Below are positions 1,744 through 25,441 of a DNA stretch of 37,341 bases, one piece after another (position 1 is the first letter of the stretch; each line of letters starts with the position of its first letter). Where the stretch lies: assembly GCA_036160175.1 (NCBI GenBank), contig JAYYEE010000227.1, positions 1 to 37,341 of the forward strand, given 5' to 3'. Under the pieces are notes generated by a model that searched no databases, was not told where the DNA came from, and saw only the letters and a list, made by a program, of their open reading frames with translations. This stretch comes from Planctomycetota bacterium (lineage in GTDB: Bacteria > Planctomycetota > UBA1135 > UBA2386). The position numbers and the translations under genes were made by a program.

Positions 1744-2565
1744 GTGGCGACCAAGAAGGCAAGCGGCGACAAGGCCAAGAAGGGTGGCGCGAAGAAGGTC
1801 GCCAAGAAGGCGCAGAAGAAGGCGACCAAGCACCGTCGCCCAGCCGCGGCCGTCGTCGCGCCGCCCGCTGGACCGCCCCCGGCGCTCCCCGCCCTGCTCG
1901 CGCGGCTTGAGCGCGCAATACCGACGCCGCGTTGCGAGCTGGACCACCGCGACGGCTGGACGCTGTTGATCGCGACGATCCTCAGCGCGCAGAGCACGGA
2001 CAAGATGATCAACACGGTGACGCCGGCGCTGTTCGAACGCTGGCCGACCCCGGAGGCGCTCGCCTCTGCCCCGCGCGAGGAGGTCGAGCAGGCCGTGCAC
2101 CGGACCGGTTTTTTCCGAAACAAAGCCAAGGCGATCCAGGGCGCGAGCCTCGCGATCCACACCGAACACGGCGGCGAGGTTCCGCGTGACCTGGACACGC
2201 TGGTCAAGCTGCCGGGCGTCGCGCGCAAGACCGCCAACGTCGTGCTGGGCATCGCCTATGGGATCCCCTCAGGGATCGCCGTGGACACCCACGTGTCGCG
2301 GGTCAGTCAACGGTTGGCGCTGACCGCCGAGAAGAACCCCGAGAAGGTCGAGCGCGCGCTGTGCGAGCTGCTCGACCAAGATCAGTGGATCGGCACTGGT
2401 CACCGGATCCTGTTGCTCGGGCGCTACGTCTGCTTGGCGAAGAATCCAGACTGCGCCAACTGTCCGATCAACGAGCTGTGCCCGTCGCGCGCGGCTGATC
2501 CGCTCGGTCCGTGGGAAGATCGCGCTGCGCACAGCGCGGTGCTCGTCGACGCGCGCGGCGCGTGA
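1744..2565 (+). CDS. nth: Endonuclease III (Nth) with a Lys/Ala-rich, histone H1-like N-terminal extension
   Basis: GTG start. HhH-GPD core: LIATILSAQSTD, LPGVARKTANVVL, IAVDTHVSRV. 4Fe-4S motif C-x6-C-x2-C-x5-C in CLAKNPDCANCPINELC. The N-terminus is MATKKASGDKAKKGGAKKVAKKAQKKATKH followed by a Pro/Ala linker. Confidence 0.9.
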   Translation: MATKKASGDKAKKGGAKKVAKKAQKKATKHRRPAAAVVAPPAGPPPALPALLARLERAIPTPRCELDHRDGWTLLIATILSAQSTDKMINTVTPALFERWPTPEALASAPREEVEQAVHRTGFFRNKAKAIQGASLAIHTEHGGEVPRDLDTLVKLPGVARKTANVVLGIAYGIPSGIAVDTHVSRVSQRLALTAEKNPEKVERALCELLDQDQWIGTGHRILLLGRYVCLAKNPDCANCPINELCPSRAADPLGPWEDRAAHSAVLVDARGA

Positions 2566-2575
2566 GCCTATTAGC

Positions 2576-3490
2576 TCAGCGGCAGGCGGCGGCGAACTCG
2601 GTCGCAGCGCAGCGCCAAGTGCGGCGGCTGCCGGGGCGCGTCGCGCGCTTCGCGCGCAGCGCATGCGGGCGCGCCAACAGCTGCCGCAGGGCGCTCGCGA
2701 CGACGTCATCCGTTGCGTCGATCGGCAAGATCGTGCGCGCGTCCTCGTCACCGAAGCTGCGCAGCTCGCCTGTGTCGAGCCCCAGCAGCGGCAGCCCCGC
2801 GGCAGCCGCCTCTGCGGCGGCCATGCCGTAAGACTCGCTCGCGCTCAGGGTCGCGAACAGGTCGTGCTCGGCGTAGAGCTCGGCGAGTGCGGTAGGCTCG
2901 ACCGCCTCTCGGATCGTCACCGGCGCGCCCAGGGCCTCTCGCCGCAGAGCCTCTACAGCTTGTGGCGCCGCGGATGTGCTCCCGACGAGCGTCAGGCGCC
3001 ACGGAAGCGCCGCGCCGCGCAGGGCCGCGAGCAGTCGGCGCGGCCCCTTGGCCTCGGGCATGGTGCCGGCGCAGATGACCGCGGGGGTGTCGTCGCCGGC
3101 GCGCGCCCGCGGCGTGAAGCAGTCGTCGACGCCTGGCCGGACGAGCGCGACGGCGTCCACCGAGGCGCGCGCGGCCGCCGCCGTGCTCGCGCCCGTCGCG
3201 ATGGCGCGGCGCACGTCTGCGGCCCAACCAGCCAGCTTCGGCTGCGTGTGCAGCAGCGGGATGACCCCGGCCGGAAACGGCCGCGCGGTCAGCTCCGCGA
3301 ACCAGCCGTCGACTACCAGAGTGAGGCCTGGCGCCGCCTCCTGGAGGGTGCGCGCGTGTTGATGAAGATGCTCTGGCCGGACGGTCTCGCGCCGGGCGTC
3401 TGTGCCGAGCGCCGCCGTGATCTGCTCTTGGTAGCGGAACCCGCCCGAGATGAGCCCTGCTGGCCGCGGCGGCTCCAGCAGCGTGATCAC
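2576..3490 (-). CDS. Glycosyltransferase, GT4 (group 1) family
   Basis: C-terminal E-x7-E signature ESYGMAAAEAAAAGLPLL. I chose the GTG start at 3490 because it overlaps the upstream stop (GTGA at 3487-3490). The longer ORF to 3583 would overlap the upstream gene by about 100 nt. Confidence 0.75.
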   Translation of the reverse strand: MITLLEPPRPAGLISGGFRYQEQITAALGTDARRETVRPEHLHQHARTLQEAAPGLTLVVDGWFAELTARPFPAGVIPLLHTQPKLAGWAADVRRAIATGASTAAAARASVDAVALVRPGVDDCFTPRARAGDDTPAVICAGTMPEAKGPRRLLAALRGAALPWRLTLVGSTSAAPQAVEALRREALGAPVTIREAVEPTALAELYAEHDLFATLSASESYGMAAAEAAAAGLPLLGLDTGELRSFGDEDARTILPIDATDDVVASALRQLLARPHALRAKRATRPGSRRTWRCAATEFAAACR

Positions 3491-3882
3491 CCGATCGGCC
3501 CCTCGTAGCTGGCCCACGCGACGCGGCTCTCTTCGAGCGTCACCTTGAGGCCGCCGGTGAAGCGGTCGCCGAGCGCGGCGCATACTTGTCCGTGGACCCA
3601 GCGCGCGAGGAATTCGGTCGTCGTGTTCTGGCCAGAGAACTGCTCGAGGTCGTCGAGGTTGGTGAAGCGCAGCGGGTCAAGCACGGCCTTCAGCGTGTCG
3701 GTAGCGAGCCCGATGTCGATGACGATGCCGTCGGCGTCGACGTCTGCGGCCGCGTACTCGGTGATGACCTCGTAGGTCGCGCCGTGGAGGCGCTGCGCTG
3801 GGCCGAAGACCGCGCCCGACAGGCTGTGGGCGATCATCACGTGGTCTTTGACTGCGACTCTGAATGCGGCGGCGTTTGGCAT
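3487..3882 (-). CDS. 6-pyruvoyl-tetrahydropterin synthase/QueD-family protein, non-canonical active site
   Basis: 131 aa with the PTPS fold pattern: F.V.V....IAHSL ... RLHGATYEV ... VTLEES. The catalytic Cys, the second His of HGH and the Asp-His pair of canonical QueD/PTPS are absent (see findings). Confidence 0.75.
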   Translation of the reverse strand: MPNAAAFRVAVKDHVMIAHSLSGAVFGPAQRLHGATYEVITEYAAADVDADGIVIDIGLATDTLKAVLDPLRFTNLDDLEQFSGQNTTTEFLARWVHGQVCAALGDRFTGGLKVTLEESRVAWASYEGPIG

Positions 3883-3891
3883 GCGGTGATC

Positions 3892-4860
3892 TTATTCGTA
3901 AGCAAAGTGCGGGCAGAGAGCGTCGAGCTCGGATTGGTAGAGCGCGGCGAAGGTCTCGGGCGCGTCGAGGAACGGCGTCGGCGGTCCGATCAGGCGGTCG
4001 AGGTCGTCGTCGCAGAGCAGCGAGAGCACCGCGCGCGTCCGCGCTGCGTGGCCCTCCGCGCGACGGGCTCGCGCGACCGCGCCTACTTGCGACGCATGAA
4101 GCCGCTTTCGCTGCGAGTGGAACGCGCCGCCGAGCTGCAGCGACACGGCTTGGTCGCCGTGCCAAGACAGCTCTACGACGAGACCCTCAAAGCCGACGGC
4201 GTCGAGGGCGAGCTGTAGGCCTGCGCCGCTGGCGCTGGCGTGTAGCGCGTGGGTGAACGCCCCAGGCTCAACCTGTTCGGGGGCCGCTACGTCACGGACC
4301 CAGGGCAGCGCCGCGGCGAACGACCGTCGCTCGGGGTCGCGATCGACGACCAGCGCCGCAGGGCGGCCAAGGTCGCGAGCGAGGACGAACGCACACAGCA
4401 GCCCGACTGGCCCGGCCCCGATGACGACCGCCCGGTCGTCACCACTCAACTCGGCGTCCCAGACCGCGTTCCGCGCGGTCTCCAGGTTCGGGAACAACGT
4501 CGCCCTGGCGTCTGGAACCTCGTCCGGGAGCCAGACCAGCTCGTCGGATGGCGCCACGGCGCGCTGTTGGTGCGGCCGCATCAAGAACGCGCGCCGCCCG
4601 CGATCTGCGCCGGACGCGACGCGCCCGACGAAGCTGTAGCCATAGAGTAGGGGCAGCTCGAAGCTCCCCTGCATGCCGCGGCAAGCCATCTCGGCGTGCA
4701 GCGACGCCGGGACGCGCGCGAGCCCGACGAGACGCTCTGTGCCAGGGCTGACGCCGGTGCAGATCGCGTCGACGGCGACGGCGCCGGGGCCGAGCGGCGG
4801 GAGGTCTACGGCGCGCAGCGCGCCGTGGCCCGCCCGTTCGATCCAGTAGCCCAGGGTCAT
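3892..4860 (-). CDS. Medium-chain (MDR) alcohol dehydrogenase-family oxidoreductase, BchC/sorbitol-DH-like
   Basis: N-terminal GroES-like part with ICTGVSPGTE. Rossmann motif VVIGAGPVGLL. I chose the ATG start at 4860, which overlaps the upstream stop (ATGA at 4857-4860). An alternative GTG lies at 4875. Confidence 0.7.
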   Translation of the reverse strand: MTLGYWIERAGHGALRAVDLPPLGPGAVAVDAICTGVSPGTERLVGLARVPASLHAEMACRGMQGSFELPLLYGYSFVGRVASGADRGRRAFLMRPHQQRAVAPSDELVWLPDEVPDARATLFPNLETARNAVWDAELSGDDRAVVIGAGPVGLLCAFVLARDLGRPAALVVDRDPERRSFAAALPWVRDVAAPEQVEPGAFTHALHASASGAGLQLALDAVGFEGLVVELSWHGDQAVSLQLGGAFHSQRKRLHASQVGAVARARRAEGHAARTRAVLSLLCDDDLDRLIGPPTPFLDAPETFAALYQSELDALCPHFAYE

Positions 4861-5837
4861 GATCCGGGCCGGCACGTGAGCAGGATGTGCCCGTCGAGGA
4901 TCGCGTGGTCCATGCGCACGCGCAGCCCGTCGTCGACGTGCTCCACCGGCGGCAAGGAGAGGCTCGGCAAGCCAGCGCCGAGGATCATCGAGGCGATGTG
5001 CACCTGGAGCAGGTTGATCGCGCGCGCTTGCAGGAACGAGGAGAGCACGCCAGCCCCGCCTTCGAGGTAGACCGAGTAGATGCCGCGGTCTCGCAGCGCC
5101 GACAAGATCGCGGCCGGCGGCAGTCGTCCGTCGACGGCTTCCACGCGGTGCATGACGACTGCGACATTGGGCGGGGCGACGCCGCGCGAGCCTTCGACGA
5201 AGACCTCGCAGCCGGGCGCTGACATCAACGCGAGGTCGCGACCTTCGGTGATCGCGCGCCCGCGGCCGCTGACAACGACGCGGCGTGGGTCTGCCCCTTC
5301 GACGTGCCGGACGGTGAGCTTGGGGTCATCGTGGAGCGCGGTCGTCGCGCCGACCATGACCCCGTCAAGGAGCGCTCGCATCCGGTGAGAGTGATGCTGG
5401 TCGGCGGCGTTCCCGATCCACTGGGACTGTCCGTTCTCACAGGCGATCCGCCCGTCGAGGGTCTGGGTGACGTGGCCTGCGACGAAGCTCTCTCCGGCGC
5501 GCCGGGCGCGCGCCGCGCCGATCAAGATAGGGAGGTAGACGCGCGCGGCAGCGGCCAGCTCAGGTTCCAGAGCGGCCCCGGCTGGGACGTGGAACACGGG
5601 GAGGCCGTCAGGGTCGCTGCGGTAGACGGGGGCGCTGTCGTCTGCTTCGTCGAGGGAGCCTGGCGCAACCTCCACGAGCAGCGCGTCGACGCTGCCGCGC
5701 GCCATCGGCTCGGTGAGCGGCTCGCAGATCCACGCTCCTCTCCGCACGAACTGAACCGCGTCCACGTCGGACTCGAGGAGGCGCCGGGCTTGCAGGAAGG
5801 CAGGCCACGGCATGCTTTGAGAGAGGTCGCAGTGCAT
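4857..5837 (-). CDS. RibD C-terminal-domain (pyrimidine reductase/DHFR-like) protein with an N-terminal extension of about 115 aa and unknown function
   Basis: RibD_C pattern from about residue 117: HVTQTLDGRIA..G.SQWI..HSHRMRALLDGVMVGATTALHDDPKLTVR..PRRVVVS..YLEGGAGVLSSFL. There is no deaminase domain. An alternative start lies at 5813. Confidence 0.75.
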   Translation of the reverse strand: MHCDLSQSMPWPAFLQARRLLESDVDAVQFVRRGAWICEPLTEPMARGSVDALLVEVAPGSLDEADDSAPVYRSDPDGLPVFHVPAGAALEPELAAAARVYLPILIGAARARRAGESFVAGHVTQTLDGRIACENGQSQWIGNAADQHHSHRMRALLDGVMVGATTALHDDPKLTVRHVEGADPRRVVVSGRGRAITEGRDLALMSAPGCEVFVEGSRGVAPPNVAVVMHRVEAVDGRLPPAAILSALRDRGIYSVYLEGGAGVLSSFLQARAINLLQVHIASMILGAGLPSLSLPPVEHVDDGLRVRMDHAILDGHILLTCRPGS

Positions 5838-5983
5838 TCAGTCGGCCGTGGTCGCTGCGCGGCAGAGGGCGCGCATAAGTCTAGCCCGTCGAGGTGCTGA
5901 CGTCGCTGCTCCGAGCGCATGCGGAGCTTGGCGTTATTCCGCGGTCCCGCCCTGGCGCCGGACTGCCGCTGCCTGAGTGGGAT

Positions 5984-6694
5984 ATGCTACATATTGTGAT
6001 CTCCGCGAGCCTGACATCCTGGTCGCGCGTCCAAGCGGTGGCATGGGTCGCTGTGCTCATTTGGAGCGCGGCGGCTGTCGACCCGGAGTCGACGCGCGGC
6101 TGCGTGGCAGCAGGTGCCAGCGTGAGTCTGATGTCCTTGGCATGGGTCCTTCGCGCGCCGCGCACGGTCGCCGACGTCATTACATTGCTCCGCGCCGCGA
6201 TCGTCGTGGCGGTGCTCTGCGCGGCGCGGTGGCTCAGCGCGTCGGAGTGGTGGCTCTGGAGCCTGCTCGGCCTCGCGCTCGCAGGCGACCTGTTAGACGG
6301 AGCCGTCGCTCGAAGGCTCGGCGCGTCGCCGAACGGCGCGTCCTTGGACATGGAGTGCGACCAGCTGAGCGTGCTGGTGATGTCCTGGTTGGTTGTCGCG
6401 CGCGGCGGCTGCGTGCACGTGCTGCTGCTCCCCGCGATGCGCTACGCGTTTGTGCTCGCGGCCTGGGTCGCTTCGGTCCCAGCGAACAACCCGAAGCCGA
6501 TCAAAGGGGACAACGCCCGCGGTCGGGTGGTGTGCGCGATGGTGGTCGTGGCGCTCTTGTCGGCCCTCGCCCCGGCGACGTCGTTGGCGTTTGCAGATGT
6601 CCTGACTGGCGCAGCTGTCCTGCTCTTGTGCTGGTCGTTCGCGAGCGATTGGAGCTACCTGTTCGCGCGGCGTCGCGCGGAGGCCGGGACATGA
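5984..6694 (+). CDS. CDP-alcohol phosphatidyltransferase-family membrane protein
   Basis: Family motif D-G-x2-A-R-x7-G-x3-D-x3-D is present as DLLDGAVARRLGASPNGASLDMECD, and the protein has multiple hydrophobic helices. The start is uncertain: GTG 5894, ATG 5984 or ATG 6131. Confidence 0.75.
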   Translation: MLHIVISASLTSWSRVQAVAWVAVLIWSAAAVDPESTRGCVAAGASVSLMSLAWVLRAPRTVADVITLLRAAIVVAVLCAARWLSASEWWLWSLLGLALAGDLLDGAVARRLGASPNGASLDMECDQLSVLVMSWLVVARGGCVHVLLLPAMRYAFVLAAWVASVPANNPKPIKGDNARGRVVCAMVVVALLSALAPATSLAFADVLTGAAVLLLCWSFASDWSYLFARRRAEAGT

Positions 6695-7308
6695 GCGTCG
6701 CGGACTACGTCGTGCTCGCGTCCTACGTCACGCTGCTGCTGGAGATCGGGCTGTTCCCGATCGCGAGCGAAGCGAGCGCCGTGCAGCTTGTAGGCGGGCG
6801 CACGGAGTCGCGCGCCCCTGCGATGATGGCCGCCCGCGCGGCCCCGCTGCCGACGCGGCTGCTGCGCTATCTCCTGCCAACCGCGCTCTGTGTTTCGCTG
6901 TTTGTGCTACCGCCCCTGGCGGTGCTGTGGCCCGCGAGCCGCATGATCCTGGCGCCGTGGTCGGCGCCTTGGCTTGTCGCGCCCGGGGTCGCAGCCGTCG
7001 TCGTCGGTCGCGCGCTGACGTTCGGCTCCGTGTTGCAGCTGCGGGCGGCCAAGCGTCGCGACGAGCTCCCCACTGGCTGTTTCCGCCACTCTCGCAATCC
7101 AGGGCTGGTCGGGATGTTCCTGATGTACGCAGGGCTCTGTGCAGCCGTCGGCGGCCCTTGGCTGTGGCTCGGCGCGCCGCTGTACTTCCTCAATATGCAC
7201 GCGCGCGTGCGGCTCGAAGAGGCCGAACTATCGGTGCGCTTCGCAGGGTCCTGGCAGGACTACGAGCGCGCAGTCCCGCGTTACCTTCCGCTCCCGGGGC
7301 TGCGTTAA
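6691..7308 (+). CDS. Membrane methyltransferase of the ICMT/PEMT (isoprenylcysteine carboxyl / phospholipid methyltransferase) family
   Basis: ATG 6691 overlaps the upstream stop (ATGA). C-terminal signature HSRNPGLVGMFLMYAGL...LYFLNMHARVRLEEAELSVRFAGSWQDYERAVPRYLP, with about 4-5 TM helices. Confidence 0.75.
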   Translation: MSVADYVVLASYVTLLLEIGLFPIASEASAVQLVGGRTESRAPAMMAARAAPLPTRLLRYLLPTALCVSLFVLPPLAVLWPASRMILAPWSAPWLVAPGVAAVVVGRALTFGSVLQLRAAKRRDELPTGCFRHSRNPGLVGMFLMYAGLCAAVGGPWLWLGAPLYFLNMHARVRLEEAELSVRFAGSWQDYERAVPRYLPLPGLR

Positions 7309-7312
7309 CGCT

Positions 7313-8032
7313 GTGTCTGCTCCTCCCGTATCGCAAGCGGACGTCGCAGCTTGGTTTGACGCGACCTATCGAGACAAGGGGCTCGGCTACCTGCGCCCGC
7401 GTCGCGCCTATCCGATCTTCGTCCAGTTGTTGGGTCTACAGCCCGGGCAGCGGCACCTCGACGTGGCCTGCGGACCGGGTCACGTGTTGACGGCGGCGCG
7501 CGAACGCGGGCTGTTGACGAGCGGCGTTGACCTGTCTGAGGCGGCGATCGCCCTGGCTCGGAAGCTACACCCCGGCGTCGACGCGCAAGTCGGTAACGCA
7601 GAAGCGCTCCCGTACGAGGGCGCGTCGTTCGACGGCGTGACGTGCATCGGCTCGATCGAGCGCTTCTTGGACCGCGAGCGCGCGCTGCGCGAGATGGTTC
7701 GGGTGGCCAAAGAAACGGCGCGGTTCTGCTTCTTGGTCCGTAACGCGAACACGCTCACTTGGCGTCTTTGGCGGCAAGCGCTCGGCCGTCGCGAGGTCGC
7801 GGGCCACCAAGATGCGCAGACTATGGACGCGTGGCGCGCGCTGTTCGGGCGCTGCGGCCTCCGTGTCGCGCGCGTCTTGCCCGATCAGTGGCCGCGGCAG
7901 CGTTGGTGGCATCTGCTGCCCGGGCAGCGACCCCAGCCAGGCCGCGCGGAGCGGGTCGCGTCGGGGTGGTTGCCGCTGCGGTGGTGCAATGAGCTGATCT
8001 TCGTGCTGGAGCGCGAGCTTGGGCATGGCTGA
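7313..8032 (+). CDS. Class I SAM-dependent methyltransferase (Methyltransf_11-like)
   Basis: Motif I is HLDVACGPGHV. Post-I is GVDLSEAAIALAR, followed by FDGVTCIGSIERF. A GTG start 4 nt after the upstream TAA is assumed. Confidence 0.7.
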   Translation: MSAPPVSQADVAAWFDATYRDKGLGYLRPRRAYPIFVQLLGLQPGQRHLDVACGPGHVLTAARERGLLTSGVDLSEAAIALARKLHPGVDAQVGNAEALPYEGASFDGVTCIGSIERFLDRERALREMVRVAKETARFCFLVRNANTLTWRLWRQALGRREVAGHQDAQTMDAWRALFGRCGLRVARVLPDQWPRQRWWHLLPGQRPQPGRAERVASGWLPLRWCNELIFVLERELGHG

Positions 8033-8867
8033 ACGCCGCGTCGATGCGCTCTATGAGAGCCTCGCGCGCTTCCAGTGGTGGCGCGCTCGTCGAGGGGTCG
8101 ACGCCGGCTCCTTGGGCGGTCTAGAGATGCGCAAGCGGCTGTTGCCTGCGCGCCGCGCGGATCGTCCCGCTGACGGCGGCGCCGGGCTCGATGCGTGGTT
8201 GGATGTGCTGGTGGGGGGATTCGCGCAGCGTCGGGTGGTGGACCTCGGCTCGGGGTTCGGTGCGTCGCTGCTGCGGGCTACGGACGCGGGCGCGAGCTCG
8301 TGCGTCGGCGTAACGGCCAGCGAGTATCAAGCAAAGCGCGCAAACCAGGTCGCGCGCGCCCGCGGGGTCGACGACCGATGTCGCTTCGAGGTCGCGCAGT
8401 TGGGTGACCCGTTGCCATCGGCGGACGTGGTGCTCGCGGTCGAGTCCTTGGGCCACGCGCCCGACTTGGCCGGAGCGCTGGCGCAGGTCGCCTCGTCGCT
8501 CAGCAGCGACGGCGTCTTTGTTTGGCTTGAGGACCTGCTCGTTGCGCCGTCGCGCGACGACCCTGACGTGACCGCGCTGGCGCGCGCGTGGGCTTCGCCG
8601 CAGCTCCGGTGCCTCAGCGAGGTCGACGGCGCGATCGCGGCTGCCGGGCTGCGCGTGACGCAGTCGGTAGACCTCACCGAGCAGGTCCCGCGCAAAGACG
8701 CGGTGAAGCTCAACCGCGCGCGTCGTCGGCTGCACGCGCTTCGCGCGATCACCCCTCTGCCCGGGGCGCGCAGGGTCCTCGACGCCTTCCTCGGCGGTCT
8801 GCACCTCGAGCGCGTCTATGCGCGCGGGCTCGCGCGCTACCAGCTCATCGTCGCGCGTCCCGCGTAG
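8025..8867 (+). CDS. Class I SAM-dependent methyltransferase (second copy, different subfamily)
   Basis: Motif I is RVVDLGSGFGASLL, followed by CVGVTASEYQAKRA and ADVVLAVESLGH. ATG 8025 overlaps the upstream gene by 8 nt. An alternative TTG lies at 8019. Confidence 0.7.
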   Translation: MAERRVDALYESLARFQWWRARRGVDAGSLGGLEMRKRLLPARRADRPADGGAGLDAWLDVLVGGFAQRRVVDLGSGFGASLLRATDAGASSCVGVTASEYQAKRANQVARARGVDDRCRFEVAQLGDPLPSADVVLAVESLGHAPDLAGALAQVASSLSSDGVFVWLEDLLVAPSRDDPDVTALARAWASPQLRCLSEVDGAIAAAGLRVTQSVDLTEQVPRKDAVKLNRARRRLHALRAITPLPGARRVLDAFLGGLHLERVYARGLARYQLIVARPA

Positions 8868-8877
8868 GGTCAAGAGC

Positions 8878-8932
8878 GCGCGTCCGCGACGACGGTGGCG
8901 TCACCGCGGCGAGGGGGCTGCTGCGGACGCGC
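8878..8932. terminator. Candidate bidirectional terminator hairpin between convergent genes
   Basis: A perfect 10-bp inverted repeat, GCGCGTCCGC (8878-8887) / GCGGACGCGC (8923-8932), sits in the 71-nt gap between the methyltransferase stop (8867) and the modC stop (8939). The loop is long (35 nt) and there is no clear U-tract. Confidence 0.35.
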
Positions 8933-8938
8933 TGTCTG

Positions 8939-9991
8939 CTAGACCGGCGCGACGCGGATTTCGGTCGCTTTGATCGCGACCCAGACGTCACCACCATCGT
9001 CGAGGCCGAGCTCCTGGACCGCAGCCTCCGTGACTTCCGCGATGACGGGGAGCGCGCCGCCGACCCGGACACGCACACAGTCGACGCTGCGTTCGGTCCC
9101 GTCCACGGGAGCGCGCCACACGTTACGCGGAGATCCGGCCGGCCGCTCTCGGAAGAGCGCGACGGCGCGCGGGTGTAGGGTCGCGATCGCGGGCCCCTCG
9201 TGCGCAGTGCCAACCTGGACGCGAGCGCCGCCATCGACCGTGAGCGTGCGACCGCTGCAGACGCCGCGGATGCAATTCAGCCCGATCAGGTCGGCGACGT
9301 AGCGCGACGCCGGCCTACGGCTGAGCGCGTCGACGGTGCCGGCCTGCACGACGCGCCCGTTCTCGAGGACCGCGATGCGGTCGGCGAGCGCCAGCGCGTC
9401 GTCGAGATCATGCGTGACGACGACGCACGCGCCGCCGAACGCCTCAAGCTGACGTCGCAGCATGCGGCGTAGGGATAGTCGCGAAGAGGCGTCGGCGGCC
9501 GCGAGGGGTTCGTCCAGGAGCAGGGTCCCGGGCTTGGTCGCGAGCGCCCGCGCCAGCGCGACCCGCTGGGCCTGACCGCCGGAGAGCGCCGCTGGGTAGG
9601 CAGCGCCGCGCTCGGCTATCCCAACGCGCTCAAGCCACTTGTCGGCGACCGCGCGCGCGAGCGTGCGCGTGACGCCGCGGCTGCGGAGGCCGTACGCGAC
9701 GTTCTCGCGAATGGTCATGCGCGGGAAGAGCATGTGGTCTTGGAACACCACGCCGATGTCGCGCTGCTCTGGCGGCACGAACGCCCCGGGGCTGCCGTCG
9801 TCGACGAGGGCGCCGGCGAGCCGGATGTGGCCGTGATCAGCGCCACAGAGCCCGGCGATCGCGCGCAGCGTGGTCGACTTGCCCGCGCCGTTGGGGCCTA
9901 CGAGCGCGACCGTCTCGCCCGCTTTGACCTGCAGCGTCGCGGCGAGGGAGAAGGTCCCCAGCTGCATCGAAAAACGTGCGTCGAGGCTCAT
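8939..9991 (-). CDS. modC: Molybdate ABC transporter ATP-binding protein ModC with a C-terminal TOBE/Mop-like domain
   Basis: Walker A GPNGAGKST, signature LSGGQAQRVALARAL, Walker B LLLDEPLAA. ATG 9991 overlaps the modB stop (ATGA). Confidence 0.9.
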   Translation of the reverse strand: MSLDARFSMQLGTFSLAATLQVKAGETVALVGPNGAGKSTTLRAIAGLCGADHGHIRLAGALVDDGSPGAFVPPEQRDIGVVFQDHMLFPRMTIRENVAYGLRSRGVTRTLARAVADKWLERVGIAERGAAYPAALSGGQAQRVALARALATKPGTLLLDEPLAAADASSRLSLRRMLRRQLEAFGGACVVVTHDLDDALALADRIAVLENGRVVQAGTVDALSRRPASRYVADLIGLNCIRGVCSGRTLTVDGGARVQVGTAHEGPAIATLHPRAVALFRERPAGSPRNVWRAPVDGTERSVDCVRVRVGGALPVIAEVTEAAVQELGLDDGGDVWVAIKATEIRVAPV

Positions 9992-10779
9992 CGTCCGAAG
10001 AACCACTGGCGGCGGAGGAGGAACAAGATCGTCGCAGAGATCGCGAGCAGGACGACGCTGAGCGCCACCGCTGAGGACGGCTGGGACTCGAGCGCGTGGT
10101 AGACCGCTCGCGGCAGAGGGCGCGTGCGCCCATCGAAGCTCCCGGCGAACGTGATGGTCGCGCCAAATTCGCCGAGCGCGCGCGCCCACGCGACCAGCAA
10201 GCCAGCGCGAAGCGACGGCGCGATCATCGGCAGGGTGACCGTCAGGAACGCGCGCCAAGGCGAGGCGCCGAGCGTGGTCGCGGCGTCGGTGTAGCGGTGG
10301 TCAAAACTGCGCATCCCGCCCTCGACGGTGAGGACGAAGAACGGCATCGAGACGTAGGTGGTCGCCAGCACCACAGCGCTGCTCGAAAACGGGACCGTGA
10401 CGCCGAACCAGCTGTCTAGCGGTCCGCCGACGACACCGCTGGGCCCGAACGCAAGGAGCAGCGCGATCCCACCGACGATCGGCGGCAGGACCATCGGCAA
10501 GGTTGTCACGACGCGCACTGCGCTGCGGAGCGCGCCTGACCCTTGCGCGAGCCACGTGGCGAGCGGCAAGCCCATCGCGAAGCACAGCACCGTCGATAAG
10601 AGCGAGCACTCGAGCGACAACGCTAACGCCCGCAGCGTCTCGGCCGTCGTAAACAGCGCCATGAGCGCCGGCCATTCGACCTCTGCCGCGAGCGCGACGA
10701 GCGGCGCCGCGAACAGCAGCGCCGGCGCGGCGGCGATCGCTAGGATCCAGCTCGGCAGGTGCTTGCGGCGGTTATTCAT
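9988..10779 (-). CDS. modB: Molybdate ABC transporter permease ModB
   Basis: Multi-TM protein with the EAA-type loop DAATTLGASPWRAFLTVTLP and RALGEFGATITFAGS. ATG 10779 overlaps the modA stop (ATGA). Confidence 0.9.
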   Translation of the reverse strand: MNNRRKHLPSWILAIAAAPALLFAAPLVALAAEVEWPALMALFTTAETLRALALSLECSLLSTVLCFAMGLPLATWLAQGSGALRSAVRVVTTLPMVLPPIVGGIALLLAFGPSGVVGGPLDSWFGVTVPFSSSAVVLATTYVSMPFFVLTVEGGMRSFDHRYTDAATTLGASPWRAFLTVTLPMIAPSLRAGLLVAWARALGEFGATITFAGSFDGRTRPLPRAVYHALESQPSSAVALSVVLLAISATILFLLRRQWFFGR

Positions 10780-11543
10780 GGAGACGAGAACCCGTGCTCC
10801 GACAGGATGCGGCGGCCGTCCGGGCTGAGGACGAAGGCGATGAACTCCTGAGCGCCCGTCGCCTGCTCGCCGGTCGAGACCGTGACGATCGGATACGTCG
10901 CCTCGACGTTCAAGCGCGCGGGGATCGGGACGTTGTGCACTCGGCCGGCGGCCGCGAGCGCGTCGGATCGGTAGACCACGCCGGCGTCGGCGACGCCCAG
11001 CTCCACTTTGCTGACGACGGCGCGGACGCTGGGCTCATCTGACGCCGACCGGGCGGGCACGCCGGCGCGCTCCAGCAGCGCTCGCGCGTAGCGGCCGGCC
11101 GGGACCTGCGGAGCGCAGAGCAAGCAGGTGAGGTCTGGGCGCGCGAGATCTTCGACCGAGCGGATCGCCTTCGGGTTTCCCGGGCGCGTCACGATGGCGA
11201 GCGAGTTACTCGCGAATCGTCGTGGTTCGTCGGCCGTCAACCCAGCGTCGACGACCGCGTGCATCTGCAGTTGGTCTGCTGACGCGAAGACGTCTGCCGG
11301 CGCTCCTTGGCGTAGCTGCATGACGAGCTGCGGCGTCCCAGCGCAGTGAAGCTCGACCCGCAGTCCCGGCCTGGCCGCCGCGAAGCTCTGAACGAGCTCT
11401 TCAAAGGGCGCGGTCAGCGATGACGCCGCGAAGATCCGCACCGTGGGGCGCTCGTCCCCCGCGCAGCAGGCGACGGCCGCTGCGAGCGCGGCGACGCCGA
11501 GCGCGGCGCGGGTTCGTCGGGCTGTGGCGGGCTCGCGGGGCAT
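10776..11543 (-). CDS. modA: Molybdate ABC transporter periplasmic binding protein ModA
   Basis: A signal peptide is followed by VRIFAASSLTAPFEEL....GAPADVFASAD and ATYPIV, which is typical of ModA. Confidence 0.85.
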   Translation of the reverse strand: MPREPATARRTRAALGVAALAAAVACCAGDERPTVRIFAASSLTAPFEELVQSFAAARPGLRVELHCAGTPQLVMQLRQGAPADVFASADQLQMHAVVDAGLTADEPRRFASNSLAIVTRPGNPKAIRSVEDLARPDLTCLLCAPQVPAGRYARALLERAGVPARSASDEPSVRAVVSKVELGVADAGVVYRSDALAAAGRVHNVPIPARLNVEATYPIVTVSTGEQATGAQEFIAFVLSPDGRRILSEHGFSSP

Positions 11544-11600
11544 CGCGGCCAGTTGATACCCCAGCGCGGGCGCAGGCGCAGCCGTTTCTTGCGGCGCGGG

Positions 11601-12468
11601 CTATGGCGCGGCGCGCGCGACCAGCCCGAACATCAGCGGCATCGTCGGCGTGCCGTCGGGCACCGTGAAGCGGCGCCCAGGGAGCGCCTGCATCCCGTCG
11701 AAGAGCTCGCAGCCGTTTGCGTAGGGGTACTCCCTGACCTGCCTGATCCGCATCCCGGCGTCTACGACTGATTGAACGAGCTGCGCTACGGTCCACTGGG
11801 AGCCGAATGACCGCTCTGAGATGGCAAAATCTGTGACGCCGGCGTCGTAGCCCGACGGCGCGAGGCCGGCGCCGGCGGAGTCTCGCACGCCGTCCTCGTC
11901 GAGCGCCTTGTCGAGGAAGTAGGGGTCGCCGGTGAGGCCGCGCGCGCCGAGGCTCCACGCGAGCGGGTGCAACTCCAGCAGCACGATCCGGCCGCCGCTG
12001 CGCAGCACGCGCGCGACGCCGCGAGCCCAGCGGTCGAGGCCGCACAGCCACCCGACCCTGCCGTACGTCGAGAAGGCGACGTCGAAGCGGTCCTCAGTCC
12101 TCGCGAGCCAATCGAAGACGTCTGCGCGGATAAAGGAAGCGCAGATCTCCGCGTCGCGTGAGAGCTCGCGCGCACGCTATCGGGGCGTCAGCGATGTCAA
12201 CGCCGGTCACCCGCGCGCCCAAGCGCGCGAGGCTGATCGAGTCCTGGCCGCAGTTGCACTGCAGGTGCACGAGGTCAGCGCCGTCGCAGTCGCCGAGCAG
12301 TTCTAGCTCGTCTGGAAACAACGTCGACCCGCCTTGCTTCAGGAACGCGGCCTAGTGGAGCTTGTGGCTGTTGTGTGCGGGCGTGGCGGCGTTCCAAGAG
12401 CGGCGGTTCTGTTCATGGAGCGCGCGGCGCTGGTCTTCGTCGAAGCGCGGCGTGGTTGCCGCTACCAT
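11601..12468 (-). pseudogene. Class I SAM-dependent methyltransferase, disrupted by an in-frame TAG and a frameshift
   Basis: Translation from ATG 12468 gives MVAATTPRFDEDQRRALHEQNRRSWNAATPAHNSHKLH-TAG(12354-12352)-AAFLKQGGSTLFPDELELLGDCDGADLVHLQCNCGQDSISLARLGARVTGVDIADAPIA. Near 12170-12176 the sensible reading jumps one frame: ..ARELSRDAEICASFIRADVFDWLARTEDRFDVAFSTYGRVGWL..VLRSGGRIVLLELHP... to the stop at 11601. Confidence 0.65.
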
Positions 12469-12478
12469 CGCACATCTG

Positions 12479-13177
12479 ATGGCTGAAGCCGACCTCTACG
12501 CCCCGGTCAAGAAGTTCCTCGAAGGGCAGGGCTACGAGGTCAAGGGGGAGATCGAAGACTGCGACATCGTCGCGGTGCGCGCGGACGAGTCGCCGGTCGT
12601 CGTCGAGCTCAAGGTGCAGCTGAACCTCGCGTTGATCCTGCAAGCCGTCGATCGGCTGGCGGTGAGCGACAGCGTCTACATCGCGTTTCGCGTCGGCAAG
12701 AAGCACAGCGCGTCGTGGCGGTCGCGCGGCAAGCAGGTCAAGAGCCTGCTGCGGCGCCTCGGGCTCGGCCTCTTGACGGTGTCGGCCCGCGGCAAGGTCG
12801 AAGCCGTCCTAGACCCGGGGCCGTATCGGCCGCGCCTAGGCAAGGAGCGCCGCGGTCGGCTGCTCAAAGAGTTCGCGGAGCGTGTCGGCGACCCGGTCGC
12901 GGGCGGGTCGGCGAACACGAAGCGCATGACGGCGTACAGGCAGGACGCGCTGCGGTGCGCGCTCGCGCTCAAGGACGGCGGCGTGACCAAGGTGAGCGAG
13001 CTGGCGAAGAAGACCGGCGTCGAGCGCGCGGGGCCGATCCTCCGCGACAATCACTACGGTTGGTTTGAGCGCGTCGAGACGGGCTACTACCAGCTGACGC
13101 CGAGCGGTCTGGCCGGGCTCACGGAGTGGGCGCACGCCGCGGGTGCGCTCGGCCGCGGCGGTGAAAGCACGGCCTGA
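12479..13177 (+). CDS. DUF2161-like protein: putative PD-(D/E)XK nuclease-fold domain plus a C-terminal winged-helix region
   Basis: MAEADLYAPVKKFLEGQGYEVKGEIEDCDIVAVRADESPVVVELK shows a D...E-x-K arrangement. The C-terminus VTKVSELAKKTGVERAGPILRDNHYGWFERV is HTH-like. I prefer ATG 12479 to the upstream GC-rich extension from 12362. Confidence 0.65.
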   Translation: MAEADLYAPVKKFLEGQGYEVKGEIEDCDIVAVRADESPVVVELKVQLNLALILQAVDRLAVSDSVYIAFRVGKKHSASWRSRGKQVKSLLRRLGLGLLTVSARGKVEAVLDPGPYRPRLGKERRGRLLKEFAERVGDPVAGGSANTKRMTAYRQDALRCALALKDGGVTKVSELAKKTGVERAGPILRDNHYGWFERVETGYYQLTPSGLAGLTEWAHAAGALGRGGESTA

Positions 13178-19554: not shown

Positions 19555-20592
19555 TCAGGGCTGGGTCCCGAGCTCGACCTTGTGGGCCGCGCCGATGACC
19601 TCGCGCACGTACCGAGGGACCCCGAAGCCCGGCAGGCGACGTCGGAGCTCGGCGATCAGCTCTAGGCCGCGCGCGACCGGGACCTCCCAGTGCTGGGCTC
19701 CCGTGACCGGGTCTAGCTGGTGGAGGTAGTAGGGCATCACGCGCGCGTCTAGCAAACGCTTGGACAGCTCGGTGAGCGTGTCGGCGTCGTCGTTGACGCC
19801 GCGGAGCAGCACGGTCTGGTTGAGTACGGGCACGCCGCTCTTCACCAGTCGCAGCAGGGCCGCGCTGCAGTCTTCGTCGAGCTCGTTGGGGTGGTTGCTG
19901 TGGACAACGACCGTCGGCGCTAGGCGCGTCGCGCGCAGCCAGCCGAGCAGCGCGTCGTCGACGCGGTCCGGGATCACGATGGGCAGGCGCGTATGGATGC
20001 GCAGCCGCCGCAGGTGGGGGATGTCCTCGAGTTGCGCGACCAGCTCGGCGAGCCACGGGTCGGGCCGCATCAGCGGATCCCCACCCGAGAGCAGCACCTC
20101 CTCTACCCCGGGGCTGCGCCGGAGCTCCTCGAGCGCGGGTCGCCACTGCGCCAGCCCGTTCGGGCTTTCGTCGTACGGGAACTCGCGTCGAAAGCAGTAG
20201 CGGCAAGCGACCGCGCAGACGCCGGCGACGATCAGCAAGGCCCGGCCGTCGTACTTCTGCAGCAACCCTGGCGCTCTCGAGGCGGCGAGGTCGCCGCACG
20301 GGTCGGCGCCGTAGCCCGCGGCGGGCGGGGACAGCTCGTCTTGCGTCGGCAGCACCTGCGCGAGCAGCGGGTCAGACGGGTCGCCTGGGCGCATCCGGCC
20401 GACGAGCGCCTCGGGCACCACCAGCGCGAAGCGATCGGCCGCGCGCCGTGCGGCCTCGCGTAAGGCCTGCGGCAGCTTCAGCCGGGCGATCAGCTCGTCA
20501 GGATCGCGAATCGCCCGCCGCAGCTGTTCGCGCCAATCGCAGCGCGCCGCGCCGGTCTGCTCGCTCGGTTCACTTGGGATTTGGCGTTCCAA
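19555..20592 (-). CDS. epmB: EF-P beta-lysylation protein EpmB (lysine 2,3-aminomutase-like radical SAM enzyme)
   Basis: Radical-SAM motif CAVACRYCFRR. Conserved PDEL...L, DPLL.QVLP and LLSGGDPL. TTG start at 20592. Confidence 0.85.
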   Translation of the reverse strand: MERQIPSEPSEQTGAARCDWREQLRRAIRDPDELIARLKLPQALREAARRAADRFALVVPEALVGRMRPGDPSDPLLAQVLPTQDELSPPAAGYGADPCGDLAASRAPGLLQKYDGRALLIVAGVCAVACRYCFRREFPYDESPNGLAQWRPALEELRRSPGVEEVLLSGGDPLMRPDPWLAELVAQLEDIPHLRRLRIHTRLPIVIPDRVDDALLGWLRATRLAPTVVVHSNHPNELDEDCSAALLRLVKSGVPVLNQTVLLRGVNDDADTLTELSKRLLDARVMPYYLHQLDPVTGAQHWEVPVARGLELIAELRRRLPGFGVPRYVREVIGAAHKVELGTQP

Positions 20593-20632
20593 TGGCGGAG
20601 TCGGGCTCGTTTCGATATTCGTATTCGCCGCT

Positions 20633-21205
20633 ATGGCTTCCTACGGCACGAGTGATTTTAAGAAGGGACTGAAGGTCCAGATCGAGAACGAACCCTACCT
20701 GATGGTCGACCTCGAGTTCATGAAGCCGGGGAAAGGCCAAGCGGTCTACCGCGTGCGGCTCAAGAGCCTGACCACTGGTCGCGTCGTGGACAAGAACTAT
20801 CGCAGCGGCGACTCGCTAGAGGCCGCGGACGTCGAAGAGAGGTCGATGCAGTTCCTCTACAAGGACGCGACCGACTTCCACTTCATGGACGGCGAGAGCT
20901 TCGAGCAGTTTCAGGTGGGCGCCGACGCGGTCGGCGACGCGGCGAAGTGGCTCAAGGATGAGATGGAGTGCGACGTCGTCATGTGGAACGGCGCGCCGAT
21001 CACGGTGACGCCGCCGGCGCACGTCGAGATGAAGGTGACCTACACCGAGCCTGGCGCGAAGGGGAACTCGACCGGCAACGTGCAGAAGCCGGCGACCGTC
21101 GAGACCGGCGCGGAGCTGATGGTGCCGATCTTCATCAACAACGACGACGTCGTCCGCGTCGACACGCGCACGGGCGAATACGTCGAGCGCGTCTCCAAAG
21201 GCTGA
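20633..21205 (+). CDS. efp: Elongation factor P
   Basis: MASYGTSDFKKGLKVQIENEPYLMVDLEFMKPGKGQA.. places the modification lysine (K34) in PGKGQA. 190 aa. Confidence 0.95.
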   Translation: MASYGTSDFKKGLKVQIENEPYLMVDLEFMKPGKGQAVYRVRLKSLTTGRVVDKNYRSGDSLEAADVEERSMQFLYKDATDFHFMDGESFEQFQVGADAVGDAAKWLKDEMECDVVMWNGAPITVTPPAHVEMKVTYTEPGAKGNSTGNVQKPATVETGAELMVPIFINNDDVVRVDTRTGEYVERVSKG

Positions 21206-21219
21206 GCCAGGGAGCTCGC

Positions 21220-22164
21220 TTGGCCGCCGATCAGATCGCGGAGTTGCGGCGCCGCGCCGGGCTGGTGGCGCAGGCGCGCCGGTTCTTCGACGAGCGCGGC
21301 GTGCTTGAGGTCACCACGCCGCTGCTCGGCGACGGCGTGGTGGTCGAGGAGCACATCGACCCGATCCCCTGCTTCGTGCGGTTGGGGCCGGGAGCGCCGG
21401 TGGAGCGCCGGCTATTGACCTCGCCGGAAGGGCCGATGAAGCGGCTGCTCGCCGCGGGCGCTGGCCCGATCTACCAATTTGCGCACGCGTTCCGGGACGG
21501 CGAGGTCGGTCGTCGGCACGCGGTCGAGTTCACGATGCTCGAGTGGTACCGCCCCGGCATCGACCACTACGCGCTGATGGACGAGGTGGAGGCGCTGGTT
21601 CAGGAGCTGTTGCCGAGCGCGGCGGGCGGGCCCTTCGACCGGGTCACCTACCGCGAGCTGTTTGTAGAGTTCGCGGCGGTCGACCCGTTCGCGGTCACGC
21701 GGGCAGAAGCGCTGAACGCGTGCGGCGCGCTCGGCGTCGACGTGCCGGACAGCTACGACGGCGGGACGCTCGACGAGGCGCTCGACCTGCTCCTGGTCAG
21801 CTACATCGAGCCGCGGCTCGCGGGGCGCGGGCCGCTGTTCGTGCACGGCTACCCGCCGTCGCAGGCCGCGCTCGCGCAGGTGCGCGTCCCGGCTGGCGGG
21901 GGACCCGCGACGGCCGACCGCTTCGAGCTCTACGTTGGCGGCGTCGAGCTCGCGAACGGCTACCACGAGCTGGCAGACGCGGTCGAGCAGCGGCGGCGCT
22001 TCGAGGCGGCCAACCGCGCCAGGGAGGCCGCTGGGCGCCGCGCGCTGCCGCTCGACGAGCCGCTGCTCGCGTCGCTCGCTGCGGGATTTCCGCCGTGCGC
22101 GGGCGTCGCGCTCGGCTTCGACCGGTTGCTGATGCTGGCTGCGGGTCGGGATCACATCGCCTGA
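21220..22164 (+). CDS. epmA: EF-P--(R)-beta-lysine ligase EpmA (GenX/PoxA, LysRS class II paralog)
   Basis: aaRS class II motifs FRDGEVGRRHAVEFTMLEWY and GVALGFDRLLML. TTG 21220, just after the efp stop, is the assumed start. The 5' part of the long ORF overlaps efp out of frame. Confidence 0.85.
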   Translation: MAADQIAELRRRAGLVAQARRFFDERGVLEVTTPLLGDGVVVEEHIDPIPCFVRLGPGAPVERRLLTSPEGPMKRLLAAGAGPIYQFAHAFRDGEVGRRHAVEFTMLEWYRPGIDHYALMDEVEALVQELLPSAAGGPFDRVTYRELFVEFAAVDPFAVTRAEALNACGALGVDVPDSYDGGTLDEALDLLLVSYIEPRLAGRGPLFVHGYPPSQAALAQVRVPAGGGPATADRFELYVGGVELANGYHELADAVEQRRRFEAANRAREAAGRRALPLDEPLLASLAAGFPPCAGVALGFDRLLMLAAGRDHIA

Positions 22165-25398: not shown

Positions 25399-25441
25399 TG
25401 GCGTCCGAGAGGATAGACCTCGCCGCGCCTAGCGAAAGGGC

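Follow-up and report, generated by a model that had tools for sequence, protein, structure and literature searches.

A distinct CDP-alcohol phosphatidyltransferase and three methyltransferases of Planctomycetota belong to a conserved eight-gene cluster with a probably GTP-derived head group

CDP-alcohol phosphatidyltransferases such as PgsA, PssA and the phosphatidylinositol phosphate (PIP) synthases carry a signature of the form D-G-x2-A-R-x7,8-G-x3-D-x3-D, and the membrane methyltransferase ICMT has the motif R-H-P-x-Y. In the systems of MprF, LtaS and EptA a phospholipid is made or flipped and its head group is then used outside the cell. Canonical PTPS and QueD proteins have three zinc-binding histidines, including those of an H-x-H (H-G-H) motif, and a catalytic cysteine. 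Pteridine glycosyltransferases have been assigned to the GT-1/AviGT4-like type (PMC5683033). Here we describe a locus with genes related to several of these families. It lies in a window of 37,341 nucleotides, that is, the whole stretch of DNA analysed (contig JAYYEE010000227.1 of the Planctomycetota assembly GCA_036160175.1, 70% GC), in which a preliminary description had singled out four genes, named A to D below, as a self-contained module for a lipid head group. We find that an eight-gene cluster of 6.3 kb (window 2576-8867) takes in A-D as its membrane and tailoring half and a divergent operon as its other half. The head group is probably a GTP-derived glycoconjugate, because A-D are co-conserved with the divergent operon and, in relatives, with genes for GTP cyclohydrolase II (GCH II), HAD phosphatases and LtaS-like proteins. 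The genes and the regions that border them are as follows.

2576-3490, minus strand: GT4 glycosyltransferase, last gene of the divergent operon, 304 aa
3487-3840, minus strand: PTPS-like T-fold protein of the SCO6650 type, 117 aa
3892-4875, minus strand: divergent medium-chain dehydrogenase/reductase (MDR) dehydrogenase, BchC/threonine-dehydrogenase-like, 327 aa
4857-5837, minus strand: RibD_C-type reductase, 318-326 aa (start at 5813 or 5837), with an N-terminal extension of about 110 aa
5838-5983, no strand: divergent intergenic region between both operons (sequence read)
5984-6694, plus strand: gene A, CDP-alcohol phosphatidyltransferase of a small distinct subfamily, 236 aa
6691-7308, plus strand: gene B, integral membrane methyltransferase of the ICMT/PEMT superfamily, 205 aa
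7313-8032, plus strand: gene C, class I S-adenosylmethionine methyltransferase, 239 aa, GTG start
8025-8867, plus strand: gene D, class I S-adenosylmethionine methyltransferase at the CMAS-like periphery, 280 aa
8868-8938, no strand: junction between D and a convergent modC, 71 bp

Open reading frames (ORFs), codon-position GC and junctions confirmed the four genes A-D at the positions given to them before, coupled as had been claimed. Their GC3 (0.80-0.84) and GC2 (0.52-0.55) follow the coding-frame pattern expected at 70% GC. B begins at 6691 with an ATG that shares letters with the TGA of A (6692-6694), a gap of 4 nt separates the end of B (7308) from the GTG of C (7313), and the ATG of D (8025) gives an 8-nt overlap with C, which ends at 8032. 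In the divergent operon, the GT4 start overlaps the T-fold stop by 4 nt. No riboswitch or other RNA element was returned by Rfam at E<=1 for positions 2000-9500, the inter-operon region included. The family identities proposed for A-D also stand, by Pfam for A, C and D and by profile and fold for B. What has to be abandoned is the self-contained module, since it overlooked the co-conserved divergent operon of RibD_C, dehydrogenase, T-fold and GT4 genes.

This co-conservation was seen in loci found through A. Alignment of A relatives gave 54 fetched loci, of which 16 (L001-L016) hold the A subfamily; these were searched with tblastn, and gene content was read from ORF lists and Pfam. B stands directly after A in 15 of the 16, and 14 have both C and D, so the arrangement is not due to chance. 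The dehydrogenase and the RibD_C gene were each found in 13 loci, GT4 in 12 and the T-fold gene in nine; nine loci contain the complete set of eight, and 13 contain six or more of its genes. Most gaps coincide with contig ends, which are reached in L007 and L016, and L015 is a contig of only 4.3 kb. In this set the A subfamily lacks the divergent operon only in contig-end loci and in L009, where A and B are alone in 16.6 kb and the T-fold gene, with an LtaS-like neighbour, is on a different contig. In both L010 and L014 the A-B pair stands a few kb from GT4, dehydrogenase and RibD_C, and C and D are divergent from those, beside RibD_C. A Pseudomonadota metagenome-assembled genome (MAG; L013) has all eight genes in a different order. 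The eight-gene set thus survives rearrangement. A complete genome of the same genus as the window (G162) carries this set of eight with conserved synteny and 55-81% protein identity. On a wider scale, a phosphatidyltransferase adjoins dehydrogenase, T-fold and GT4 genes in five phyla, and the four are co-located in L017, L018, L027 and L037 as they are at 2576-6694 of the window. Two loci carry inserts between B and C, namely an alpha/beta hydrolase and an ATP-cone/AAA protein (L002, 9398-11224) and a 3-keto-disaccharide-hydrolase/cytochrome c protein of 1173 aa (L008, 7165-10686), so the B-C junction is not always coupled.

To avoid the bias of loci found through A, we also surveyed genomes through the dehydrogenase. 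Among 401 sampled Planctomycetota genomes, A was present in six and the dehydrogenase in nine, and in all six with A the dehydrogenase lies beside it. Of 401 sampled Actinomycetes genomes, 74 have the dehydrogenase (71 of 398 when three unpublished genomes are left out). Twenty actinomycete loci, chosen non-randomly to lie well inside long contigs and to span the E-values, were scored up to a distance of 9 kb from the dehydrogenase. Every one has a T-fold gene and a GT4 gene; LPG_synthase_TM-like genes were found in 16, a CDP-alcohol phosphatidyltransferase and GCH II in 15 each, a RibD_C-like gene in 13 and an LtaS-like domain in nine; homologues of B, C or D were found in none of the 20. The window thus resembles the neighbourhood of SCO6650 of Streptomyces coelicolor (PDB 3d7j) in its T-fold protein, and the actinomycete loci share a core of dehydrogenase, T-fold, GT4, GCH II, RibD_C and phosphatidyltransferase. 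It differs from them in having the ICMT-like B together with C and D and no GCH II in the cluster, whereas the actinomycete loci hold another methyltransferase and an LPG_synthase_TM protein. We take SCO6650 to lack zinc and the catalytic triad and to belong to the family called PTPS-IV, and the nearby SCO6655 is presumably a variant GCH II. Full-text literature searches aimed at the cluster or at SCO6650 gave no paper, and for SCO6655 nothing related was retrieved. These comparisons identify the window cluster as a lineage-specific Planctomycetota variant of a widespread uncharacterised cluster type, in which the methyltransferase and flippase-like protein of Actinomycetes give way to an ICMT-like enzyme and two methyltransferases of class I.

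Gene A matches Pfam CDP-OH_P_transf (PF01066) with 38.4 bits, above the gathering cut-off of 22. As had been noted before, its signature motif is intact: DGAVARRLGASPNGASLDMECD occupies residues 105-126, and D105, G106, A109, R110, G118, D122 and D126 are invariant in 20 relatives. A is nonetheless no ordinary PgsA or PssA. Its score with the pgsA model TIGR00560 was 31.1 bits, below the equivalog cut-off of 109.1; no match to pssA (TIGR00473) was obtained at E<=0.01, and the cut-off of no named NCBIfam-type model tested was reached. The MAG to which the window belongs has a true PgsA on contig C112 (143.5 bits, above cut-off) and a PssA-like gene on contig C290 (95.6 bits, cut-off 107). Both sit on other contigs; A is an extra paralogue, not a housekeeping enzyme. 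The subfamily is small: E<=1e-30 is reached by 74 of 1.84 billion cluster representatives, and E<=1e-10 by 941. A word-index search, which is weak evidence on this point, returned no longer, fused relatives; fusions were seen instead through the loci. The predicted model of A (predicted local distance difference test, pLDDT, 87.8) is all-helical with several transmembrane (TM) segments. Foldseek placed it with PSS (7pow), PIPS (5d92 and 6h53) and PgsA (7drk) at probabilities of 0.97-1.00 and E-values of only 0.05-0.13; the target-normalised TM-score (TMt) with 7drk_B was 0.69, and another PIPS (6wmv) was also among the closest folds. A thus resembles PgsA, PIP synthase and PssA in its signature motif, its all-helical multi-TM fold and its closest structures, and is unlike PgsA and PssA in that it is an orthologue of neither and begins with two additional helices. 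Enzymes with soluble substrates (4mnd and 4o6m; DIPPS, AF2299) rank far below users of CDP-diacylglycerol, and no cytidylyltransferase was found by Pfam among the cluster genes of the window or of the relatives' loci examined. From this fold ranking and the lack of a cytidylyltransferase in the cluster we infer that the donor of A is probably CDP-diacylglycerol.

Gene B reached 22.7 bits with Pfam PEMT, under the gathering cut-off of 25. A profile of 16 B sequences matched solved ICMT structures (5vg9, E 7.5e-8; 4a2n, E 3.6e-6), and the B model (pLDDT 92.7) was closest to ICMT (5v7p, the top Foldseek match with probability 1.00, and 4a2n) and to the related steroid reductases. Its invariant C-terminal residues include R135, P137, G141, H170, R172, E176, E177 and L180. 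B thus resembles ICMT and PEMT in profile, in fold and in the conserved C-terminal R..R.P...G ... EE..L pattern, and differs from them in its sub-threshold PEMT score and its short length of 205 aa. Its substrate is not prenylcysteine and probably not phosphatidylethanolamine either. Genes C and D passed several class I methyltransferase models, with Methyltransf_11 scores of 67.4 bits (C) and 39.2 bits (D); D also matched CMAS with 21.9 bits, below cut-off, and gave weak matches to cyclopropane-fatty-acid synthase and GPP C-methyltransferase. Their motif I sequences are different, as stated earlier, with LDVACGPG in C and VDLGSGFG in D. C is the most conserved protein of the cluster (68-78% identity in close Planctomycetota loci). 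Neither C nor D reached the cut-off of a named equivalog model, and ESM Atlas look-ups for C and for the dehydrogenase returned only generic names. The earlier view that A-D follow neither the Pcs nor the PmtA route agrees with our results, since no such model was among the matches for A, C and D in a library whose coverage of them is uncertain. C and D could equally act on soluble intermediates.

The first gene of the divergent operon encodes a reductase that matches Pfam RibD_C with 107.9 bits (cut-off 24.1) and TIGR00227 with 109.9 bits (cut-off 150.15). Its nearest PDB entries, at E 1e-15, are RibD reductase domains and 2,5-diamino-6-ribosylamino-4(3H)-pyrimidinone 5'-phosphate reductases; no deaminase domain was found in it. 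The dehydrogenase gave no Pfam match at 1e-3 and only low NCBIfam scores (bchC 37 bits, tdh 30-31 bits, all far under cut-off). It carries a GxGxxG motif, matches alcohol, butanediol and threonine dehydrogenases in the PDB (E 3e-6 to 1e-3) and is 46-69% identical across the Planctomycetota clusters. The T-fold protein scored 71.8 bits with Pfam PTPS and 34.7 bits with the QueD model (cut-off 89.25), and over residues 1-114 of its 117 it matches PDB 3d7j, "uncharacterized protein SCO6650", with E 2.7e-29. It shows H-G-A-T, with A21 nearly invariant, and has no conserved Cys. By its sequence it is of the SCO6650 type and not a canonical PTPS or QueD. The glycosyltransferase matches Glyco_trans_1_4 (52 bits) and Glycos_transf_1 (47 bits), and in NCBIfam and the PDB it is weakly similar to the small-acceptor GT4 enzymes MshA, BshA and sucrose-phosphate synthase. 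Taken together with the loci of relatives, the cluster recalls the early riboflavin pathway, since RibA, the RibD reductase domain and a HAD phosphatase are the same families in the same logical order. In contrast to that pathway it has no deaminase domain, lumazine synthase or riboflavin synthase, its reductase is below the ribD_Cterm cut-off, and it adds a dehydrogenase, T-fold protein, GT4, methyltransferases and a lipid transferase. With the bacterial pterin glycoside systems (PMC5683033) it shares a GT-B, GT4-like transferase beside a PTPS-fold gene. It differs from them in lacking a canonical PTPS and in its entry through GCH II, not GCH I. The cluster was also considered as a substitute for GCH I in folate synthesis, a role rejected because GCH I is found elsewhere in four of the five cluster-bearing genomes and the cluster is rare in the phylum.

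A link to GTP comes from relatives. Of the 16 loci found through A, five (L010, L011, L012, L014 and L016) have a dedicated GCH II as part of the cluster. In L010, which has no T-fold gene, it is fused to a HAD-IIA phosphatase between GT4 and dehydrogenase (11082-12890) and passes the NCBI ribA models, and a single GT4-GCHII-HAD protein is encoded in L014 (9914-12358) and in L011 (about 2480-4966). These GT4-GCHII-HAD and GCHII-HAD fusions would be useful constructs for work on the pathway. The idea that the cluster GCH II copies are variants forming a formamidopyrimidine (FAPy) found no support: neither the five cluster copies nor the housekeeping copy has lost the tyrosine regarded as decisive. 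In two large Planctomycetota genomes (L067 and L068) we found a tight operon in the order GCHII-RibD_C-MDR-T-fold-GT4-methyltransferase, and no phosphatidyltransferase was found in these 20-kb stretches. The methyltransferase of such soluble-only operons has no similarity to C or D. L067 belongs to a low-GC (39%) genome, where the six coupled genes of the soluble-only operon are followed by one for a CAP-domain secreted protein (7753-13071).

Relatives also tie the cluster to the membrane. An LtaS/sulfatase-like membrane protein is encoded in nine of the 16 loci found through A, and an LtaS-like gene lies a few kb from A in all five other Planctomycetota genomes with A. In Pseudonocardia (L017) phosphatidyltransferase and LtaS/sulfatase-like domain are fused in one protein of 876 aa that matches both Pfam domains; a second Pseudonocardia locus (L027) gives the same pair of matches and may hold a like fusion. 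The same kind of fusion was recognised in L083 and L087 by alignment to the L017 protein, and in L037 (Vicinamibacterales) the distal part of a 722-aa phosphatidyltransferase ORF aligns with LtaS-like proteins. The LtaS-like proteins score 21-35 bits with Pfam Sulfatase, around the cut-off of 25, and a profile of them is weakly similar to solved LtaS-type structures (E 0.003-0.006); a single sequence gave no match in the PDB. The parallel with MprF, LtaS and EptA lies in the LPG_synthase_TM and LtaS/sulfatase-like proteins of relatives, the second of which also occur as fusions with the phosphatidyltransferase; the weakness of the structural similarity and the lack of such genes in the window set it apart from those systems.

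The comparison with G162 shows how the window copy has been trimmed. Between D and modC, G162 (L065, 15736-18986) encodes a 7-TM protein of 547 aa with no Pfam match, which also has no similarity to LPG_synthase_TM, and an LtaS/sulfatase-like protein of 536 aa. A 7-TM protein of about 547 aa follows D in G162, L001, L002 and L004-L008, the L001 contig ending inside the gene, and the LtaS-like gene is in the locus in G162, L002 and L004-L008. At the window locus both genes are absent and 71 bp (8868-8938) stand in their place. No LtaS-like match was found in the MAG at E<=1e-3 to 1e-5, and the MAG is 82% complete, so genome-wide absence cannot be claimed; the 7-TM protein is represented by an N-terminal part, 42% identical, at the very edge of MAG contig C279. 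G162 has another block between nth and GT4 (L065, 7067-9439), with an OpuAC-type substrate-binding/permease fusion of 790 aa and an ABC ATPase-like match; at the corresponding place in the window (2565-2576) there are no genes.

From the gene families, their coupling and their co-conservation, all of them observed here, we infer each chemical step and the product as follows. GCH II would open GTP to 2,5-diamino-6-ribosylamino-4(3H)-pyrimidinone 5'-phosphate; in the present genome only the housekeeping RibBA was found for this step, for which relatives have a cluster copy. The RibD_C-type enzyme would then reduce the ribosyl to a ribityl group and, as there is no deaminase, the 2-amino-4-oxo ring, which is the ring that T-fold proteins bind, would be retained. 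The BchC-like dehydrogenase may oxidise a side-chain alcohol. On chemical reasoning only, oxidation at C2' would give a ketone that could close with the 5-amino group to a dihydroneopterin-phosphate-like pterin, a two-step equivalent of the Amadori step of GCH I. The T-fold protein may bind or cyclise the intermediate to yield a pyrimidine- or pterin-like polyol, from which a HAD phosphatase, where present, would take off a phosphate and which GT4 would glycosylate. With CDP-diacylglycerol as donor, A would place phosphatidyl on one of the hydroxyls of the polyol and form a new phospholipid. B would methylate the product in the bilayer, and C and D would methylate free or lipid-bound intermediates. 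In complete versions of the cluster a flippase-like protein, putatively LPG_synthase_TM in Actinomycetes and the unrelated 7-TM protein in close relatives of the window, would carry the head group to the outer face, where in most relatives the LtaS/EptA-like enzyme would probably pass the phospho-head group to an envelope acceptor.

How far this can be believed differs between its parts. That the head group is GTP-derived, glycosylated and methylated, is joined by A to diacylglycerol phosphate and is methylated by B in the membrane is a tentative reading, to which we give slightly less than an even chance. The fuller proposal of a new phospholipid class, with a GTP-derived, glycosylated and multiply methylated pteridine or ribitylaminopyrimidine head group that B methylates in the membrane and an LtaS/EptA-like enzyme uses as envelope donor, is possible but doubtful. 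Several observations weigh against the tentative reading. The window cluster has no GCH II, HAD, flippase-like or LtaS-like gene, and the only GCH II found in the MAG, at its 82% completeness, is of the RibBA type (contig C114). The T-fold protein lacks the zinc and cysteine residues of PTPS and may therefore only bind a ligand. B is below its Pfam cut-off and has R-N-P-G in place of the ICMT motif, and C and D have no informative named relatives. As to the surveys, the first locus set had A as its entry point and is therefore biased towards co-occurrence with A, and the genomes with G handles may overlap the L loci, so that the counts are not independent. Of the nine Planctomycetota genomes with the dehydrogenase, three gave no A-family match at E<=1e-25; the dehydrogenase regions of two of these three (G181 and G013, 20 kb each) hold a soluble-only operon and no CDP-alcohol phosphatidyltransferase. 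Likewise, no phosphatidyltransferase was found up to 9 kb from the dehydrogenase in five of the 20 actinomycete loci. Soluble-only versions thus exist, and the GTP-derived product need not be lipid-linked.

These last observations bear on the alternative that the soluble genes make a free pterin or pyrimidine that bears sugar and methyl groups and serves as a cofactor, pigment or signal, with C and D as its methyltransferases and with A and B catalysing a separate, co-regulated lipid reaction. Such a product would be comparable to the pterin glycosides of cyanobacteria and Chlorobium, and we consider it unlikely, if with a real chance of being correct. Soluble-only operons stand alone in L067 and L068 as well as in the five actinomycete loci, C and D lie beside RibD_C in L010 and L014 with A and B several kb off, and the pteridine glycosyltransferases covered in PMC5683033 are GT-1/AviGT4-like. 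Nevertheless, a phosphatidyltransferase adjoins dehydrogenase, T-fold and GT4 in five phyla and in 15 of the 20 dehydrogenase-seeded loci and in some loci is fused to an LtaS-like domain, a persistence that is hard to explain without a shared substrate. A bioactive secondary metabolite derived from GTP, toxoflavin-like or other, in which the membrane proteins would serve late tailoring, export or self-protection, appears quite improbable to us. GCH II, a RibD-type reductase and several methyltransferases recall the toxoflavin genes, and the distribution is patchy (A in six of 401 Planctomycetota genomes); but no conserved deaminase domain or transporter of the antibiotic-cluster type was seen, and occurrence in 74 of 401 Actinomycetes with very stable gene content is more like envelope physiology than a strain-specific antibiotic.

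The lipid head-group role proposed in the preliminary description is plausible, and A is not an ordinary enzyme of its family, but the unit comprises eight genes, with a head group that probably derives from GTP and is no simple amine. Methylation in the manner of ethanolamine to choline is unlikely. In its specific form, where A attaches a simple amino alcohol, the three methyltransferases act stepwise to give a choline-like lipid and the divergent operon has no part in the process, we hold it to be very improbable. It draws on the membership of B in the superfamily that includes PEMT and on three methyltransferases in one coupled operon, and it has to contend with the co-inheritance of the divergent operon with A-D across phyla and rearrangements, with the restriction of A without that operon to L009 and contig-end loci, and with the failure of any PmtA-type or Pcs model to be returned. 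The least probable of the alternatives, by our estimate, is that A is DIPPS-like and joins two soluble molecules by a phosphodiester, as in a compatible solute or a cofactor tail, with no lipid involved. Enzymes of this kind do belong to the CDP-alcohol transferase family (4mnd, 4o6m), but they rank well below the CDP-diacylglycerol users for the A model, the cluster has no cytidylyltransferase, and the partners of A are a membrane methyltransferase, LtaS-like genes and LPG_synthase_TM proteins.

If the proposal of a lipid with a GTP-derived head group is correct, bacteria of at least five phyla, and about a fifth of the sampled Actinomycetes, would channel an early intermediate of riboflavin type into a constituent of the membrane or envelope for which lipidomics has no name. 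A nitrogen-rich, possibly fluorescent or redox-active head group would then join the known phospholipids, the logic of making, flipping and transferring known from MprF, LtaS and EptA would have a new use, and the solved orphan T-fold family of the SCO6650 type (PDB 3d7j) would gain its first function. The Planctomycetota variant is compact (eight genes in 6.3 kb) and thus a convenient unit for heterologous expression.

Other features of the window were noted in passing. Convergent with D lies a modABC-type molybdate transporter operon (8939-11543; ABC ATPase with TOBE domain, permease and SBP_bac_11), which is syntenic in G162 and elsewhere is no member of the cluster. At 19555-22164 a radical SAM gene on the minus strand adjoins EF-P and a gene for a class II tRNA-synthetase-like protein of 314 aa (tRNA-synt_2), a set that looks like EF-P lysylation of the EpmA/EpmB type. 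At 24277-28870 a GATase_6 and SIS protein of 1142 aa (an oversized GlmS-like protein) adjoins a DegT/DnrJ aminotransferase.

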